From Vannella sp. (Eukaryota), in NCBI GenBank assembly GCA_023345925.1, contig JAJQQN010000586.1:1-33022 (forward strand): a stretch of DNA of 33,022 nucleotides, in the 5' to 3' direction. The notes beneath the pieces are model-generated. The model did not search any database and was not told the DNA's origin. It was given only the letters and a program-made list of their open reading frames with translations. Every line of letters begins with the position of its first letter. Position 1 is the stretch's first letter. A program made the translations under genes and the position numbers. Positions 12,158 through 27,216 of this stretch are shown piece after piece.

Positions 12158-14226
12158 ATGAGTGCAGAGCCAATCCAAGAACCTCCGCGGATGGGGATGG
12201 GGAGTGGGGAAAGGAATGGGGAGGCCCCTCCTGCTGCAAAGGTGGAGGCCAGTGAGCAGAAAGATCAAGTCATTAGAAAGCCTACTACAGCACTGGAAGT
12301 GCGGACTCTCACGTACAAACGCCCACCACTGCGCACGGTCGATGACTTCGACTGCGATCAACAGAAGATCGGGGAGGGCACCTACGGCAAGGTCTTCAAA
12401 GCATGTGACAAGAAAACCAAAGAAATAGTAGCTTTGAAGCAGATACCTTTTACCCAAGGCGATCAAGGGGTAAGGCTACCAACGGTCGGTTGGAACATCG
12501 ACCTGCCGCACCGTTTTTCCCTCCATGTTCATGAACCCCTCGAAGACTTTACTGACTGATTCTAGCTCTCTGTAACCTGCGTTCGTGAGATTAAATTGCT
12601 CAAGTCCCTCCAACACGAGAACATCATCCACTTGAAAGAGGTCGTTCTTGACACCCGTGAGCCCTTTCCTCCCCTTCCTTCGTTGTCTTTCTAATCCCTG
12701 ATGAGACGAAAAACGGAATAAGCCAGATGAACACCTCTATCTGGTGTTTGAGTACATGCACCACGATCTCTCAGGTCTGAGCGGCCAGAAGGGGCAGTGC
12801 TTTGTTGCAGGTCAGGTGCGCTGCTATGTGCTTCAAATGCTCGAGGGGCTCTACATGTGCCACAAGAAGGGAATCCTTCATCGAGATATCAAAGGTGTGA
12901 AGGTCATGATGAGGTTTCTCAGCCTCGGAACTGACCCAAGTAGGAGCCAATATGTTGGTTAATAACGAAGGAATCTTGAAGATTGCGGACTTTGGACTAG
13001 CACGGAAGATGAAAGAGGACTCGTGCCACACACAACCGGTGGTTACCCTTTGGTACCGCGCACCCGAGCTCCTGTTAGGAGCGAGAAACTATGGTCCTGC
13101 CATAGACATGTGGTCTGTAGGGTAGGTGAATCCTCCGGGGCATTGTGACTTGCTTCAACGCAGTCACAATGCAGGGGTTTGCGTGGCGGCATTTTCCTCT
13201 CGTGTATTCCCAATGGGAGCCGAGGAGGGACATGCTGCCGCGCAAACCCATTCCCATTGTTCACCGCACAGTCTTGATTGACCAGTGCGTGGGATGATCA
13301 CCTAGCTGTCTGCTGGTTGAGTTGTACACCCGCCAACCTCTCTTTCCGGGAACGACCGAAACCGATCAAATTGATCGTATCTATAAGCTTTGCGGCACAC
13401 CCAGTGGTGAGAATTGGCCCGCAGGGCGCGAATTACCAAATTATCGCAGCTTCATGCCAAGGAATCCCATTCGGAGAACCCTGCGAACTCATCTCTCGTA
13501 TGTTACTGCTCATTGATGAGCGGCATTGTCCGACTCATACTGGGGTGGCGAACAGCAACATTGCTGACGAGAAAGTTGTGGACTTAATTGACCAACTCCT
13601 TTCGCTTGATCCCACCAAGCGTCCCTCTGCGGAGTCTGCGTTGAATCACCCGTATTTCTTCGATCTTCCGAAGTTGGAGCCTTCTGAGTAAGACCAGCAA
13701 GGGAAAGCCTTTTCTTTGCCTAACCTAAAGAAGACTACCAAAGTACGATCGATCGCTCAACGAGTTGTATCATAAGTCAGAAACATCAAGGCGAGAAGGT
13801 AACACAAGACCAAGACCTCTAGAGCCTGCCCCCAAACGTTACCGCGACAACTCAGGACAATCCCAATCTCAGCGCTCTCGCTCTGACGATCATTCACGAA
13901 GTGGAGGGCACTCGCGGAGCTCGAGAGGTCCTCGCGAAGAATTTCCGCGCCCCCATGCAGGGAGGCCAGAACCTTCTCGGCGTGGCAGTGGCAACCCAGA
14001 GTACGATCGACCAGTTCGCGATCAATCCAATCGCACCCATAGGGGTAATGAGCATCACCGCCACCCAATAGATGGTCGCCCAAGGCATGAACCCCCTCGT
14101 CCCAGATCTCCCCCTCCTTCAAGGCCCCTTTACCAAAGAGAACCAACTCCAAATGAGCCCCCAAGAGACTACAGAGAGCGAGGACTCTCCACTGAAGAGT
14201 TTTCTAAGCCATCAAAGCCAAAATGA
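12158..14226 (+). CDS. Transcriptional cyclin-dependent kinase, CDK9/CDK12 (CDKC)-like, with Arg/Pro/Ser-rich tail (7 exons)
   Basis: [99 protein letters not shown]. Introns 12470-12565, 12657-12726, ~12895-12943, 13122-13305, ~13498-13555 and ~13688-13733. Confidence 0.92.
13122..13305 (+). ncRNA. Structured RNA element filling CDK intron 4 (candidate cis-regulatory RNA or intronic ncRNA)
   Basis: 11-bp perfect stem 13140-13150/13162-13172. 18-bp stem 13175-13192/13232-13249 with two G-U pairs. Third stem 13265-13269/13285-13289. Intron ends are complementary (TAGGTGA 13123-13129 / TCACCTA 13298-13304). Confidence 0.65.
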
Positions 14227-15797: not shown

Positions 15798-16668
15798 ATG
15801 GCCGACGCGATGGAGATCCCTCAGGGAGAGGCTGTGGAGGAGGTTAAGGCTACCAAAGAGACCTTTCCTCCAAAGGAGACTCTTTATGTCAATAACCTGA
15901 ACGAGAAGACGAAGATCGAAGGTGGGAGAGCTGAAGGGAGCTGTAAAAGGAGAAAACTTCGGCGTTTGTCTCATATGGGCTTGTAGAGTTGAAGAAGGCT
16001 CTGTATACGCTCTTTGCTCAGTATGGGACAGTTTTGGAGATCGTAGCGGTCAAGACGTACTCCTTGAGGGGCCAAGCTTGGGTGGTTTTTGATAGTACAA
16101 CAGAAGCCTCCACAGCTATGCAGAAGCTCAACGGATCGATGTTCTACGAGAAACCTCTTGTAAGGGACCCTTTCTTGTCATCCTGTCGGTTCAATCACTC
16201 ACCTCAAGCCAAGAGAATCCAGTTCTCGGCCGATAGGTCCGACAAGATCACTGAGAGAGAAGGTGTGCCAATCAACAAGGAAGAGCGCAAGTCTTTGAAG
16301 AGGAAGAAGCGCGAAGCTGAGATGGAGGAACGCGCGAAGAAGAGAAGAGCGACGGCGACCGTTCGAGCAGACAACAATGCGCCGAACAAGCTTCTCCTTG
16401 TTCAGAACATCCCTGCCCTTGACCCCAAGATCATCCACGACATGCTGCAGACCCTCTTCAGCCAGTGAGATCGCCTTCTCTATCTCATGACCCCTCTCAG
16501 CTCACCGTTTGTAGGTTTGACGGGCTGAAGGAAGTTCGAATGGCACCTGGCAGAGGAGTGGCCTTTGTGGAGTTTGAGAACGAACTGCAATCTGGCCGAG
16601 CGCGTGAAGGATTGCAGAACTTTAAGATCTCTCCGGAGTTCCCCCTTTCTGTCTCCTTTGCCAAGTAG
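15798..16668 (+). CDS. U1A/U2B'' (SNF-family) spliceosomal RRM protein (4 exons)
   Basis: TLYVNNLNEK, ELKKALYTLFAQYG, LRGQAWVVF, IQFS, then a second RRM PNKLLLVQNIP...EVRM...VAFVEFENE...SFAK*. Confidence 0.93.
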
Positions 16669-20689: not shown

Positions 20690-22615
20690 ATGCTCGCAAC
20701 GAAGGAGCCTGAGTTTGCTAGGAGGCTCCCATTGGATGGGTTGAGAGGCGTGTTCGTCCTTGTGGTGATTCTGTTCCATTTGGACTTTGAATGGATACGG
20801 ATCGGCTTCGTGGGTGTGGACGCCTTCTTCGTTCTCTCTGGCTTTGTGATCACCAGCATACTTGCAGTGCAGCAGAGCAGCAATGAATCCTTCCACTTCA
20901 GCAAATTCTACGCTCGACGGTGCATGCGCTTGTTTCCCGTCTCCGCCTTGGTCCTTATCGTGGCCGCCCTCTTCACCCGCTCCTTCACCACTGCCACCAA
21001 CGTTGGCAAGATGAGGTCAGCATTCCTTTGTGCGGGTGCATACAGCGAGAACTGGTACCTTAGGTGGTCCAACAACGACTACTTCTCCCAAGGCATCGGT
21101 CGCAACCCCATCCTCCACTACTGGTCCCTCGCTGTCGAAGAGCAGTTCTACTTTGTGTGGCCTTTGCTACTGTTTGTATGCTACAAGATCGGAAGGACCC
21201 ACGAGAAAGTCTTCCGTCTTGTTGTGGCTCTTTTTCTTGCATTTGCCACTTGGACAGTCGTTGCTGTGCTTCAGGGAGCCAATGTTAGCTCTATTTACTA
21301 CGGCACACAATTTCGGATCTATCAGCTTCTTACGGGAGCTTGCCTGGGCCTTTGGAAGCTGTCAATGCGTGGGGAAAAGGAACTTTCTTCCTCCCTTTGC
21401 GGGGCAATGTCATACACAGGTATGGGGTGCTTTTTATGCTTGGCCCTCTATCCCTTCAATGTGAGCCCCATCGTGGCAGGAGCCATATCAACAGGATGCA
21501 TGGCTCTGATGATTGTGGGATTCGAGGGAAACTCCTCCACTCTCTTGGCCAATGCCCTTTCCGGGGCCGTCTTCCAAAGGTTGGGACTGTACTCGTATGC
21601 CATGTATCTCTGGCACTATCCTTTGATCTTTGCAGAGGAGATCACCCGAACCCACGGCACCCAAACAGATCCATTACTTCGCGGAGGAGCTCTCGTTCTT
21701 GCCACCATCGCGATGTCAGCTCTGACGCACCTGCTGATTGAGCAGCCTCTGAAGAAAGTCCGATTAACATCATTCATGACATTGGTGTGCGCGGTAATTG
21801 GTTCCCTTGCCCTGTTGGCAAGTCTTAGTGCAATTCTGCCTCCTTCGGTAGAGTTCGTGCCCAATCCCAAATGGATCCCAACCTCTGAGCTGGATCGCGG
21901 AACCTCAATGCCTCCCGTTGATGTGGGTGGCGGGCACTTAGAGCTTGGCCCAGCACGATTCGTTGGGGACTCGTTCCTGGACGAGTGGACTCCCGTCTTA
22001 CAGCGACTTCTTGATCCTTTGGACCTGACTACTCAGTTCAGTCATCCTTGGATGAGAATCATCCCCGATTTCAGTGGGGGCAACTATGATGGAATACCGC
22101 ACTCCGGTCCCCTCTGGGATGCGATCAACCGACAGCCTCCGCCAAGGTCCTTGATTCTCTTTTCCTATTCCTTCATTGGTAATGATCGGATTCGCTGTCT
22201 TGAAGAGAAGGATTGCCCCTTTGCGGCAAAGAGGACCCCAGAATGGGCGGCAATTGTGAAGGAAGGGGCGAAGGATGCACTGAAAGATGTGTCACCTGCC
22301 ACAAAGATAGTTATTGTACTCCCACACCGGGTCACTTATGGCAGAGACTTCAAGCGCTGCATCCAAAACGGAGATCCTTCCTGCAAAGTGAAAGCAACCG
22401 AGGACGGATTCGATGAGTCGCGCCAGGCTCTCATCGACTTTGCCAATGAAAACGGCATCACCTTGGTTAGCTTGGACGATATCGTTTGTCCCAAACAGAT
22501 CTGCGAGAACATCGTTAACGGAATCTCTCAGTTCCGGGATGAACATCACATCTCACGAGAGTACGCAGATATGATCACTCCTCAATTCGTGGACCTTCTT
22601 GGCCGTTACTTTTGA
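20690..22615 (+). CDS. Acyltransferase-3 + SGNH fusion O-acyltransferase (OafA/OatA-like)
   Basis: LDGLRG, GFVGVDAFFVLSGFVIT, FYARRCMRLFP, HYWSLAVEEQFY, SYAMYLWHYP, then SGNH GDS and DEHH. The 641 codons are uninterrupted. A short upstream exon from ATG 20626 is possible. Confidence 0.93.
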   Translation: MLATKEPEFARRLPLDGLRGVFVLVVILFHLDFEWIRIGFVGVDAFFVLSGFVITSILAVQQSSNESFHFSKFYARRCMRLFPVSALVLIVAALFTRSFTTATNVGKMRSAFLCAGAYSENWYLRWSNNDYFSQGIGRNPILHYWSLAVEEQFYFVWPLLLFVCYKIGRTHEKVFRLVVALFLAFATWTVVAVLQGANVSSIYYGTQFRIYQLLTGACLGLWKLSMRGEKELSSSLCGAMSYTGMGCFLCLALYPFNVSPIVAGAISTGCMALMIVGFEGNSSTLLANALSGAVFQRLGLYSYAMYLWHYPLIFAEEITRTHGTQTDPLLRGGALVLATIAMSALTHLLIEQPLKKVRLTSFMTLVCAVIGSLALLASLSAILPPSVEFVPNPKWIPTSELDRGTSMPPVDVGGGHLELGPARFVGDSFLDEWTPVLQRLLDPLDLTTQFSHPWMRIIPDFSGGNYDGIPHSGPLWDAINRQPPPRSLILFSYSFIGNDRIRCLEEKDCPFAAKRTPEWAAIVKEGAKDALKDVSPATKIVIVLPHRVTYGRDFKRCIQNGDPSCKVKATEDGFDESRQALIDFANENGITLVSLDDIVCPKQICENIVNGISQFRDEHHISREYADMITPQFVDLLGRYF

Positions 22616-22696
22616 CAGCATCAAAATCAGACTGTCAAAGAATAAAACAAAAGGCTCATAGCATTTGGAACTGTTGTGAGTGAGCTGTTTAGCACT

Positions 22697-25600
22697 TTAT
22701 GGCTTTTTGCTGCCGCAAGTGTCACATTCTGAATGCTCTTGCTCATTAATAACCGTGCAAGTTGTACAAACCCAATTTCCATTTGACTGAGGTGCGGGAG
22801 ATCCGCACACAGAGCAAGTTGTCACAAAAGGGCTGTTATCCATTGTACAGGCGGTACAGCTCCAAGGTTGTTCTACCTCCTGTTCGTCACTTGGAAGAGC
22901 TTCCCGACTAGAGGTGAGCCGAGATCCTTTGAATCCCTCTTCTCCTTTCCCATTCTTCTTGGAGGTACGTGGCTTCTGCACCAGGACGGGTGTAACCGGG
23001 GCGGGTGAGATTTTTTGGTCCACTTTCGCAGGATAGTTCAAGAACACTATTGCTCTTCCAGTGATGTTAGTACAAAAGTAAATGGAATACAGGCCGTACT
23101 CTTGAACAAGGAGAGAGTCCCTAATAGAAGTCTCGTCCACCAATTCTGCGTCTCGGTAAGTCAAGATTTGTTGCCCAGGCTCGATTCCAGTGGCCTCAGT
23201 GATCTTCAGCTTCATAAATGCGACGCTTTCGTCTCCACTAACGGTAATGAACACCCTTTTAGGGCGACCAACTGGCAAACGAGCGAAGAAGGGCTCTGAC
23301 TTGGAATAAGGCACTTCCACCCACACTTTGCCCTTTTCCAAAGCCGCTGCCCTCCTTTCAAGCGATTGGCGATAAATCCACACAGTACAATCGTCGCAAG
23401 ATGGTGGGTCACTCGCGCATTTCCCGTTCGACTTGGTGATCCGAATCTGCGGACCTCCGGAATAGGAGAGAACCAGCTGCTTCCAATCAGCCTCAGAAAC
23501 AATTTGGTAGGCTCGTCCGGTCTCCTTTGCAATGCTGGGATCCACATAGTTCAGATCATGCGCCAGGCCACCATGCTCGCAAAGGAGAGAACCGTTATCT
23601 TATCCCGCAAAGGTGAGTCCAAAAGAATTCGGGGTGATGACGTACCAAAGGGACCTGGTTTTTCCTGTTTAGGAGACTTAATGAAGCTCTTCCATTCCAT
23701 GTGCCATCCACTGGCAATCAAAAAATAAGGAATGTTGTCCTTCAGTGCATCCATTCGGAAGGGGGAAACCAAGGAAGGGAGAGATATCTCCACAACAATT
23801 AGATGGATTAAAACTAGTGGCATACGGCAAACTTACCCGTTCCGCGAGGCGAATGTCAGTTGCTTTCTTTGCTTCAGATTTCTCCAATTGAAGAATCTCG
23901 TGGCACTCTGCACAGTGCTTTGTGGGGAATGGAAAAGCGGTAGAACGAGGATAACATTCGCTCAAGTAGTTCCAAACCTCACTAGTAACTGAATACCGCG
24001 CCTTCCTATCAAGAGAAAGGTTACCGTGAGCGCATGTGATGACAGCATTGATACTGTCATCAATATCTTGGTCCAGTTTGGCACTTCTCCACGCCTCTAA
24101 CCAGGGAAGGGATACCCAAAATCCTACGGCCTTTTCACAGGTTCGGCGAGACTCAGTGACCATCTTCTGTCGCAATTTAGTGCGCTCTTGTACCATTGTC
24201 TTTGAGCCCACAAGCTCCAAAGCACACACAATGCAAGCGTCCTCCTTCTTTAAAATAGGTCCACCTCCATATTGACCATGAAGCAATTCCCATGCGGCAC
24301 CGGAAATCCTTTTTGACGGCAGCGACGGATTAAGTTTGTTGTGGGGACAACAAAGAGCCTCATTGTCAATTGGAGGAACCTCCTCTCCTAGTACCCATTG
24401 CTTCAACCAAGCAGGGTTAATCCAATATGAGCTAGTTGGATCACAGTCCGGGCTATTTTCCTCTTGAATCGGTGCCAAACGAAGGAACTTCCGATAAAGT
24501 TGGGTGTGGAACTCCAGAGCCGCATATTTCTCTGCGTTTTTCTCCGTAAAATCGTCTGCTCGGAACTGCAGTATCCCATTGACTTTCTCGACATGCTCCT
24601 TTGCTGCGGTGGAGGGTAATACCTCAACTTCCGGTCGCTCATCTTTGGTGTAAATCAACATATAGGCGTTCCCAGATCTAGCTCTGTCACTTTGAAGAGG
24701 TTTCTCGCACTCTTGAGCAAGTCCATACAATTGGCGACTGTCTCTATCGAAGTCACCAATATTGGTACAGCCAAAAAGGCTAGTAATCTCGCTATCATTG
24801 AACTTCCACCACTCGCCTGTTGCCTCGTCGCAAATGTGAGCCATGTAATGCCCAGAAGTTGCGTTATCGCCCATATGCAAAAGCACTGCGGACAAGTGAT
24901 AGTCTCGAGACAAAAAGGGATCGTCCGTTGGCTTGCTCACAACATACGGCGACATGTTCAATCTCAAAGGGAAGGAAATTTCGCGCTGATGCTTGCGGCG
25001 GGAGAGGGTTTGAGGATCGTACTCGAACCGTCCCAACTGGATGTTGAGGACAGGCGGGAGTTCGTCAATGAACATCTTTCTATCAGCATCTGCAAGATGC
25101 TCACATTTCTCACAACGGTACTGGTTGTCTCCGGACATCTCCTCCGGGGTAAGAATGTTTTGCAGGGTTTTCTCCAAAGAACTGTCAAGATGGTTCAGGG
25201 AGAGCTCCAAGAAGGAGGAAGGCGCAGAGCAGATGGTTTTACACTCTCTACACTTGGTTTTGAAACAAGTTTCCCCTCTAAACTGCTCCCGGACGGTCTC
25301 GCGTATGCCAAACTCTTCGGGTGTCTTGTGGAAGAGATCTTCGAGGTGGTTCATCAGGAGATTGTTGAACTCCTGTACGTCCTCTTGAACAGAAGTGTTG
25401 ATGCCTAACAAGTGAGTGATAGCCTCGGGAGAACACGCTTTCATCTTGGACAATTGCATTGTGGCAAAGAGCTTTTGTAACTCCACCAAGAAGGACTGTT
25501 CCTTCTACCAATCGGTGAGATAGAGTCCCTCAACATGTATCTAAAGGTTACCTTGTCCTCAAAGGCAGTGGGGCATTGGTAAACCGCCTGTCGAAAGGAA

Positions 25601-26399: not shown

Positions 26400-27216
26400 A
26401 TGGGGAAGGACGGAACGTTGTTCATCCGCGGGCTTGCGTCGCAGACAACTGCAAAGGGTCTTGCGATGGAGTTTGAGCCTTTTGGGGACCTTCTTCGATG
26501 TGACATTCCATTCTCTCAGGGCGTGTCTAAAGGGTAAGTAGCAATGGGACGGGAAGGGGCCGAACAACAAGTGTAAAGGAGGTTCTCATCTTCCGTCCGT
26601 TGTGTGATGCAGGTACGCCTTTGTAGAGTTTGTCAACGACAAGGATGCCGATGATGCCTATCAGGGCTTGAGAGACCTAACCGTGGATGGTCGCCGTCTC
26701 ACAATTGAGGTAACCAAGGCAACCAGAACGCCATCTGAAGCACCTTCTAACAGGCCTTGTGTAGCGCGCAAAGCGGGCTCCTAACCAGTCTTGGAGGTGA
26801 GGAGGTGGATGGCGTTGAGGGATCCTTACTCACCAGGACACCTAGCGCTGAGTCCCCTCCAAGGCGCCGTTCTTCTCCAAGACGCGAATATAGGCGAAGC
26901 CCGCCACGATCTCGTTCCCCCTCACCAAAGAGGGCTCGAGGACGTTCCCCTTCTCCTCCTCGTCGCAGATATCGCTCTCCGCCAAGAGATAAGCGCTCCC
27001 CCGACAGACGACGACGACACGGAAGATCGCCCTCTCCGCCGAGAGATAAACATCGCGGAGATTCTCCACGCAGAAGGTCTCCTCCTCGTGGATCCCCTCC
27101 TCGTGGATCTCCTCGTCCGCGCCGAAGTCCACCAAGGTGAGTTTATTGATATCCTTAGTCATTCCCCGTCATCCACCGACTGCCATTATAGAGATAATTC
27201 GCGCGATAGAAGATAA
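26400..27216 (+). CDS. SR-family splicing factor (RRM + RS/RSP domain), multi-exon
   Basis: MGKDGTLFIRGL...KG|YAFVEF...DADDAY...VDGRRLTIE, followed by RSPSP/RSPPR repeats. Last exon inferred to end at TAA 27216. Confidence 0.88.

Follow-up and report, generated by a model that had tools for sequence, protein, structure and literature searches.

A predicted cloverleaf intron in a likely CTD-type kinase gene of a vannellid amoeba, a candidate splicing-control element

Structured RNA elements that control splicing have been described mainly from plants, fungi and animals. Among the plant elements, 45ABC and P5SM in TFIIIA reportedly choose between coding and non-coding splicing with feedback, and P5SM is said to act through binding of L5. 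Introners and MITEs carry inverted ends that include the splice sites. In the Clk1/4 kinases, introns 3/4 stay unspliced in otherwise spliced transcripts, and this pool, which is released by inhibitor or stress, limits the active kinase, as described in the available part of the report (PMC3187705). The plant DEAD element is presented, in the accessible portion of the preprint, as a structured pre-mRNA RNA that decides, within a feedback loop, whether an expression regulator is spliced into a coding or a non-coding form (bioRxiv 10.64898/2026.01.23.701338). According to the available text, yeast zipper and downstream stems shorten the effective distance and conceal cryptic sites, and their structure persists although the sequence is not conserved (PMC12350175). 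In Arabidopsis, splicing of the CDK11-group kinase CDKG1 is thermo-sensitive and is controlled by conditions as well as by related kinases; both isoforms are coding, and no structured intron is named in the part of the paper at hand (PMC6032924). Donor-blocking hairpins and folds joining the splice sites are known in general, judging from the accessible sections of two papers (PMC9977717; PMC12350175). A literature search that lay mostly outside subscription journals found no structured splicing-control element for a CTD-type kinase or for vannellids.

The intron described here is the fourth of a kinase gene located in a 33,022-nt stretch of Vannella sp. DNA (hereafter the window, meaning the whole stretch that was analysed), and it can be compared with each of these systems. 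As in the detained introns of Clk1/4, a specific intron of a CMGC kinase gene appears to be left unspliced, here on the evidence of relatives' protein records; unlike Clk1/4, which are SR kinases, the host is a likely CTD-type CDK, a single short folded intron is predicted to pair both splice sites, and release of a stored pool is a proposal only. The locus would resemble DEAD in its structured RNA, its choice between coding and non-coding products and its feedback. However, DEAD, 45ABC and P5SM are conserved throughout the land plants and their effector is known, whereas the intron 4 structure seems limited to some vannellids: the fold is absent in fungi, in animals and apparently in the vannellid record P0337. 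The plant elements also target either an alternative site or a suicide exon, while in intron 4 the whole intron is the structure and a counterpart of the P5SM suicide exon is absent. The yeast zipper stems avoid the splice sites, at least in the available text (PMC12350175), whereas the helix of intron 4 includes both. CDKG1 differs in its kinase group and its coding isoforms. Like introners and MITEs, intron 4 has inverted ends covering the splice sites; in contrast to them, it occupies an ancient position, lacks a fitting target-site duplication and has no second copy in the material searched.

The host kinase carries an Arg/Ser/Pro-rich tail, and its other five introns are 96, 49, 49, 58 and 46 nt long, their removal together with intron 4 giving the complete reading frame (Table 1). 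By exon, the best PDB matches were CDK12/13 for exon 3, Ctk1 for exon 4 and CDK3/CDK11 for exon 5. In a midpoint-rooted tree of 29 rows, with no animal CDK12 among them, the kinase was sister to P0145 (100/97) within a five-row vannellid clade (100/99). This clade fell inside the CDK9/CDKC group (97/95), apart from CDK11/CDKG/CDK10, so the label CDK9-like given in the original prediction is right at the group level, the nearest tree rows being CDKC/CDK12-type. The closest relatives of the kinase, a V. robusta protein among them, have the same C-terminal motif as the kinase, and the window histone H2A is 89% identical to the cluster containing the Vannella robusta H2A. The host is likely a divergent CTD-type CDK of a vannellid amoeba, and from family knowledge it presumably acts on the Pol II CTD.

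Table 1. Coordinates of the host gene, of intron 4 and of its predicted structural features in the window.
Feature	Position	Strand	Description
Host kinase gene	12158-14226	+	528 aa; spliced frame open
Host kinase exons	12158-12469, 12566-12656, 12706-12894, 12944-13121, 13306-13497, 13556-13687, 13734-14226	+	
Structured phase-2 intron 4	13122-13305	+	184 nt, GT..AG, inside the Gly codon of DMWSVG
Closing helix, 5' strand, donor included	13123-13136	+	pair probabilities 0.5-1.0 in the free intron
Module H1+H2	13137-13255	+	closed by 3 G-C pairs, 13137-13139/13253-13255
Hairpin H1	13140-13172	+	11-13 bp, z -5.3
Hairpin H2	13175-13249	+	75 nt, z -8.7; 18-bp outer stem with 2 G-U, plus inner stems
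Alternative partner of donor region 13125-13130	13260-13265	+	second conformer, P ~0.37
Hairpin H3	13262-13291	+	z -2.2, 7/150 shuffles equal it
Closing helix, 3' strand, and productive acceptor	13292-13305	+	pairs predicted with 5' strand 13123-13136 at 13292-13304

The comparison set for intron 4 consisted of the 36 other introns of the window, hand-curated from rough gene models. These introns have a median length of 50 nt and a maximum of 96 nt, with 34 of the 36 between 43 and 65 nt, and intron 4 is 3.7 times the median, which bears out the earlier description of an oversized intron about three times the typical length. The GT-AG intron within DMWSVG also stands as proposed, although the Gly codon is cut as GG|C and not at the G|C boundary. 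The intron sequence was recovered without differences, at the depth of its flanks, in contigs from two of the three DNA runs of one study, one of which may be the source of the window sequence, and in one run a contig crosses the intron unbroken at flanking depth; one run did not reach across the intron. Within the same curated set, kinase intron 1 (12470-12565; 96 nt) is about twice the median length and is not among the best-folding introns, two introns (12657-12705 and 23788-23836) have a GAG acceptor, and branch motifs are loose, lying 10-21 nt from the acceptor.

Intron 4 folded at -100.9 kcal/mol (z -9.19), a value equalled by none of 200 shuffles. The strongest of 357 window tiles of 184 nt overlapped it, and the best fold among the other 36 introns reached only z -2.2. 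The closing helix and the three hairpins named in the original prediction were all recovered, and the predicted architecture is a cloverleaf, in which three hairpins are held by a closing helix that joins both splice sites. Positions 2-8 form Watson-Crick pairs with positions -2 to -8, an arrangement observed in none of the 36 window introns and in none of 71 introns found at the same codon position in other genes; by prediction, a stable structure thus overlaps both splice sites. H2 has a pre-miRNA-like shape, and the H3 loop (13274-13279) is unpaired with probability 1.0. When H1 and H2 were taken away, the remaining H3 and closing helix folded modestly (z -2.7, 1/150 shuffles as good). In the free intron, the core closing pairs had P ~1.0, and the cloverleaf was the single dominant fold there only. 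With flanking exons the closing helix had P 0.57-0.64, and in this pre-mRNA context the closing-helix conformer and the conformer pairing the donor with 13260-13265 lay 0.6 kcal/mol apart. The earlier argument that G-U pairs favour selection at the RNA level is weak, as the intron contains four G-U against no A-C pairs (p ~0.06, a coin-flip estimate) and its minus strand still folds (z -7.9).

A junction pattern requiring a Tyr-Gly-Pro motif and a GTRR donor identified 109 metagenomic loci in which an intron interrupts the same codon position, mostly in fungal Ctk1/Bur1-type and animal CDK12/13-type genes as judged by motifs. An acceptor was not callable in 22 of these loci and was doubtful in 4 of the other 87; 71 distinct introns were called, with a median of 57 nt, and 65 of them were folded, the 6 longer than 500 nt being left aside. 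The folded introns, from fungi, animals and other groups, were ordinary, with a best z of -3.3 and none resembling intron 4. Since the position is ancient and the introns that share it are ordinary, the structure would have been gained by an intron that was already old, so that the intron itself cannot have originated as an introner. The scan returned no vannellid orthologue because the relatives lack the Tyr-Gly-Pro motif and the GTRR donor. Among the fungal loci, eight Ctk1-type copies (L019, L020, L024, L030, L036, L049, L063 and L105) are frameshifted upstream of the motif and keep the intron, which suggests that they are degenerate duplicates.

Vannellid orthologues were available as protein records, and unspliced-type records at the intron 4 site were found in two of four orthologue clusters. 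In the first species (species A; P0145 and P0194, on contigs of 1932 and 1948 nt), both records read 44 codons past DMWSVG and then stop, and three upstream introns are absent in both contigs; by arithmetic, the lengths fit a full transcript plus a 136-nt insert. No spliced form of species A was present among the best 120 of 614 matches. The second species (species B; the P0197 cluster, 12 members) is represented by four full-length proteins on 6 contigs, by four truncated proteins on 5 contigs that end two residues after DMWSVG, and by two C-terminal halves found as separate ORFs on contigs of matching length. Contig sizes in this species fit an insert of ~60-150 nt. A genomic contig of species B (6956 nt; P0312) gave two exon-sized calls with the intron at HRDIKG present, which indicates that another intron exists in this gene and has been removed in all 11 contigs, 5 of which stop at the intron 4 site (Fisher p 0.035 for intron 4 versus the HRDIKG intron, with contigs that are not independent).

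All truncated records of species B stem from a single source database and may go back to one study or to libraries of total RNA; in one of these records, P0319, the upstream equivalent of kinase intron 1 seems to be retained as well. Their G-L-V-stop ends (P0311, P0317, P0318 and P0319) may reflect a homologous alternative acceptor and not retention; in intron 4, use of the cryptic acceptor 13271 (region 13269-13282) would read G-L-D-stop. Only spliced forms were found in the P0143 cluster and in the V. robusta cluster (3 members). The exon call P0337, which shares 80% identity with P0143, runs on into an intron that is rich in U and looks unstructured. Of the 184 kinases carrying the motif, a set composed mostly of cluster representatives and therefore favouring full-length forms, 13 do not continue normally, comprising 7 vannellid records, 3 exon-sized calls elsewhere and 3 ordinary variants. 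From these records, the same intron appears to be selectively left unspliced in transcripts of two other vannellids, and for this reason intron 4 is likely an RNA brake on kinase amount.

A degenerate nucleotide profile was derived from the 44-residue read-through of species A. Provided that the TAG of the acceptor serves as its stop, the intron is 136 nt long and all five determinable end positions (2, 3, 5, 6 and 8) pair in the register of intron 4, a pattern found in none of 107 control introns (36 from the window and 71 from the same position), and positions 5, 6 and 8 alone were paired in one of the 107. A multi-helix fold of the profile gave a closing helix and three hairpins (z 2.9, 2/300 shuffles), with z 2.4 when the ends were fixed (7/500) and z 2.3 for the interior only (6/300). 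As a positive control, intron 4 itself scored z 2.0-2.2 with its cloverleaf recovered, and each of four ordinary introns stayed below z 1; false positives amounted to ~5-7%, with 3 of 40 random window stretches at z 2.1 or more and 2 of 40 above 2.4. A single-helix version of the test was not significant (25/200), and mean folding of random back-translations had no power (positive control z -1). No sequence similarity was detected between the two introns (28/200 shuffles as good), and the size order of the hairpins differs between them. The folds are suggestive of a species A intron that keeps end-to-end pairing with a cloverleaf.

Intron 4 is a real, single-copy-looking and lineage-restricted structured intron. 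We give about an even chance to the reading in which it serves as a lineage-specific, structured retained-intron switch that limits the active kinase. The cloverleaf, by pairing donor with acceptor, would make intron 4 the one intron of this gene that is spliced slowly and conditionally. H1 and H2 would fold locally and bring the intron ends together, the closing helix would compete with U1 and with recognition of the 3' site, and H3 would display the branch point and hide nearer AGs. Part of the transcripts would keep the intron and yield no active kinase, and the stored pre-mRNA pool would be released once a helicase or splicing factor opens the helix. By analogy, the most likely input would be negative feedback from the kinase's own transcription or splicing activity, with temperature or stress in second place. 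Such a short intron, folded throughout and with both splice sites paired, offers a compact and testable model of RNA structure gating the spliceosome, and it could show post-transcriptional control of a transcription-elongation kinase in a protist lineage.

Several predictions bear on this switch. To open both splice sites of intron 4 takes 15.8 kcal/mol; the other 36 introns average 10.9 (SD 3.6) kcal/mol, which places intron 4 at rank 4 of 37, so that masking alone is not extreme. A kinetic-window model based on Pol II speed gained no support: in a co-transcriptional scan the values stayed at 3.5-9 kcal/mol whatever the length, the donor looked about equally paired at every transcript length, and no clear open window was found. 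Of the RNA switch claimed in the original prediction, the splicing-control part is indirectly supported by the relatives' records and by the apparent end pairing in species A. A thermometer was likewise set aside, the closing-helix probability ranging only from 0.51 to 0.74 between 10 and 65 C, a nearly flat response with no sharp melt predicted.

Retention of intron 4 would end the kinase after ~259 aa, with most of the C-lobe lost. The immediate stop stressed earlier is present, but it carries little weight, as an in-frame stop would follow in phase 2 from 29 of the 36 window donors. All non-canonical outcomes checked are non-coding: besides retention, these comprise the weak cryptic acceptor 13174, just after H1, whose use would lead to a premature stop, and the non-productive acceptors 13271 and 13285 in the H3 stem, the internal acceptors giving stops or frameshifts. 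The five internal GT sites from 13177 to 13259 all score below 0 (minimum of the 36 true donors, 4.4), which leaves no usable donor and no cassette exon; a hidden exon at 13175-13258 (53+84+47 nt) was rejected with a donor score of -6.5. No consensus branch motif was found at the usual -10 to -21 from the productive acceptor, and A13277 (-29), in a branch-like motif within the unpaired H3 loop, is a candidate branch point. K-turn and SECIS readings of the closing helix were discarded on inspection because the register does not fit.

It is also possible, if unlikely, that the intron hosts a non-coding RNA, either as an excised and debranched intron that persists as a stable cloverleaf or through H2 as a miRNA precursor, with retention as a side effect. 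The dominance of the cloverleaf in the free intron only, compared with its lower probability in pre-mRNA, fits this possibility, and the G-U bias is a weak hint at the sense strand. At 75 nt, H2 lies at the lower edge of the amoebozoan pre-miRNA range, usually 75-125 nt with some intronic cases in the available text (PMC11014262). Against it, the window gave no Rfam match at gathering score, and at E up to 10 the only matches were to generic miRNA hairpins, to one lncRNA fragment and to an H/ACA family at 11.8 against 60 bits; the best generic miRNA scores of H2 were at most 21 bits, compared with gathering scores of at least 70 for the best ones. The absence of a specific match, riboswitches, 7SK, SRP and snRNAs included, agrees with the earlier statement that no known family is recognised, and the link to 7SK drawn at that time found no support; two apparent resemblances, one to the SRP Alu U-turn and one to 7SK, were dropped for the same lack of Rfam support. 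Intron 4 contains no tRNA (ARAGORN) and no Sm or B-box motif, and searching for exact motifs revealed no C, D or H box. A protein-binding RNA should moreover keep some of its motifs, whereas the sister intron of species A shows no sequence similarity to intron 4 and has its hairpin sizes in another order.

Rather unlikely, in our view, is a zipper-type splicing aid or tolerated expansion, in which the fold shortens an overlong intron and hides acceptors while splicing remains constitutive. Looping out 13137-13255 would leave ~65 nt, about the ordinary length of a window intron, and the cryptic AGs at 13271 and 13285 sit in H3, as this explanation would have it; the unexceptional masking of the splice sites is in line with it as well. 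In yeast, zipper stems and structure around cryptic sites are common and poorly conserved in sequence, but zipper stems start at least 10 nt from the donor in the portion of the study available (PMC12350175), whereas the helix of intron 4 covers donor and acceptor. Constitutive splicing also fits poorly with unspliced forms that are frequent in two relatives.

The retained-intron switch has a more elaborate form, which we regard as quite unlikely. Here the Pol II CTD-type kinase would control how much of it is made by means of the whole-intron cloverleaf, which would sense kinase activity as the state of elongation or splicing; once released, the cloverleaf may itself bind the kinase or tune it. 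If true, vannellids would have evolved an element encoded in cis that takes the place of 7SK control, and its architecture would have been kept, not its sequence.

A fold-back transposon (MITE) or introner relic in the intron, or as its source, would make the structure a DNA-level leftover, and we consider it improbable. The inverted ends, the long near-perfect stems and the strong fold of the minus strand are what such a relic would leave; yet the position is common to fungal and animal genes, so insertion did not create intron 4, and the architecture is branched and does not consist of one terminal repeat. No target-site duplication matches the ends of intron 4 or those of its modules, only offset repeats of 4-5 nt being found, and no second copy was detected in the window or, at 80% identity, in the three runs, which hold 46-71% of sampled words. 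The MITE/introner alternative raised in the original prediction has lost ground. Among viral contigs, no relative of the kinase was found, and two matches to the H1 pattern were unrelated palindromes. Chance folding or an assembly artefact, for which only the modest score of H3 and the closing helix alone could speak, is hardly credible beside the whole-intron z and the identical sequence in contigs of two runs.

Other features were observed around the kinase gene. A U1A/U2B''-like gene (15798-16668) and an SR-like RRM gene (26400-27216) lie in the same window as the kinase gene, which is probably a coincidence. At 11063-11087, an intergenic region inside the contig contains ~3.5 tandem copies of the plant-type telomere heptamer, which we take to be a telo-box-like array. 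In addition, a long gene at 20690-22616 (+) seems to combine acyltransferase-3 and SGNH, shows no evident introns in this otherwise intron-rich region and has a bacterial-type look, so that, by eye, horizontal transfer is possible.
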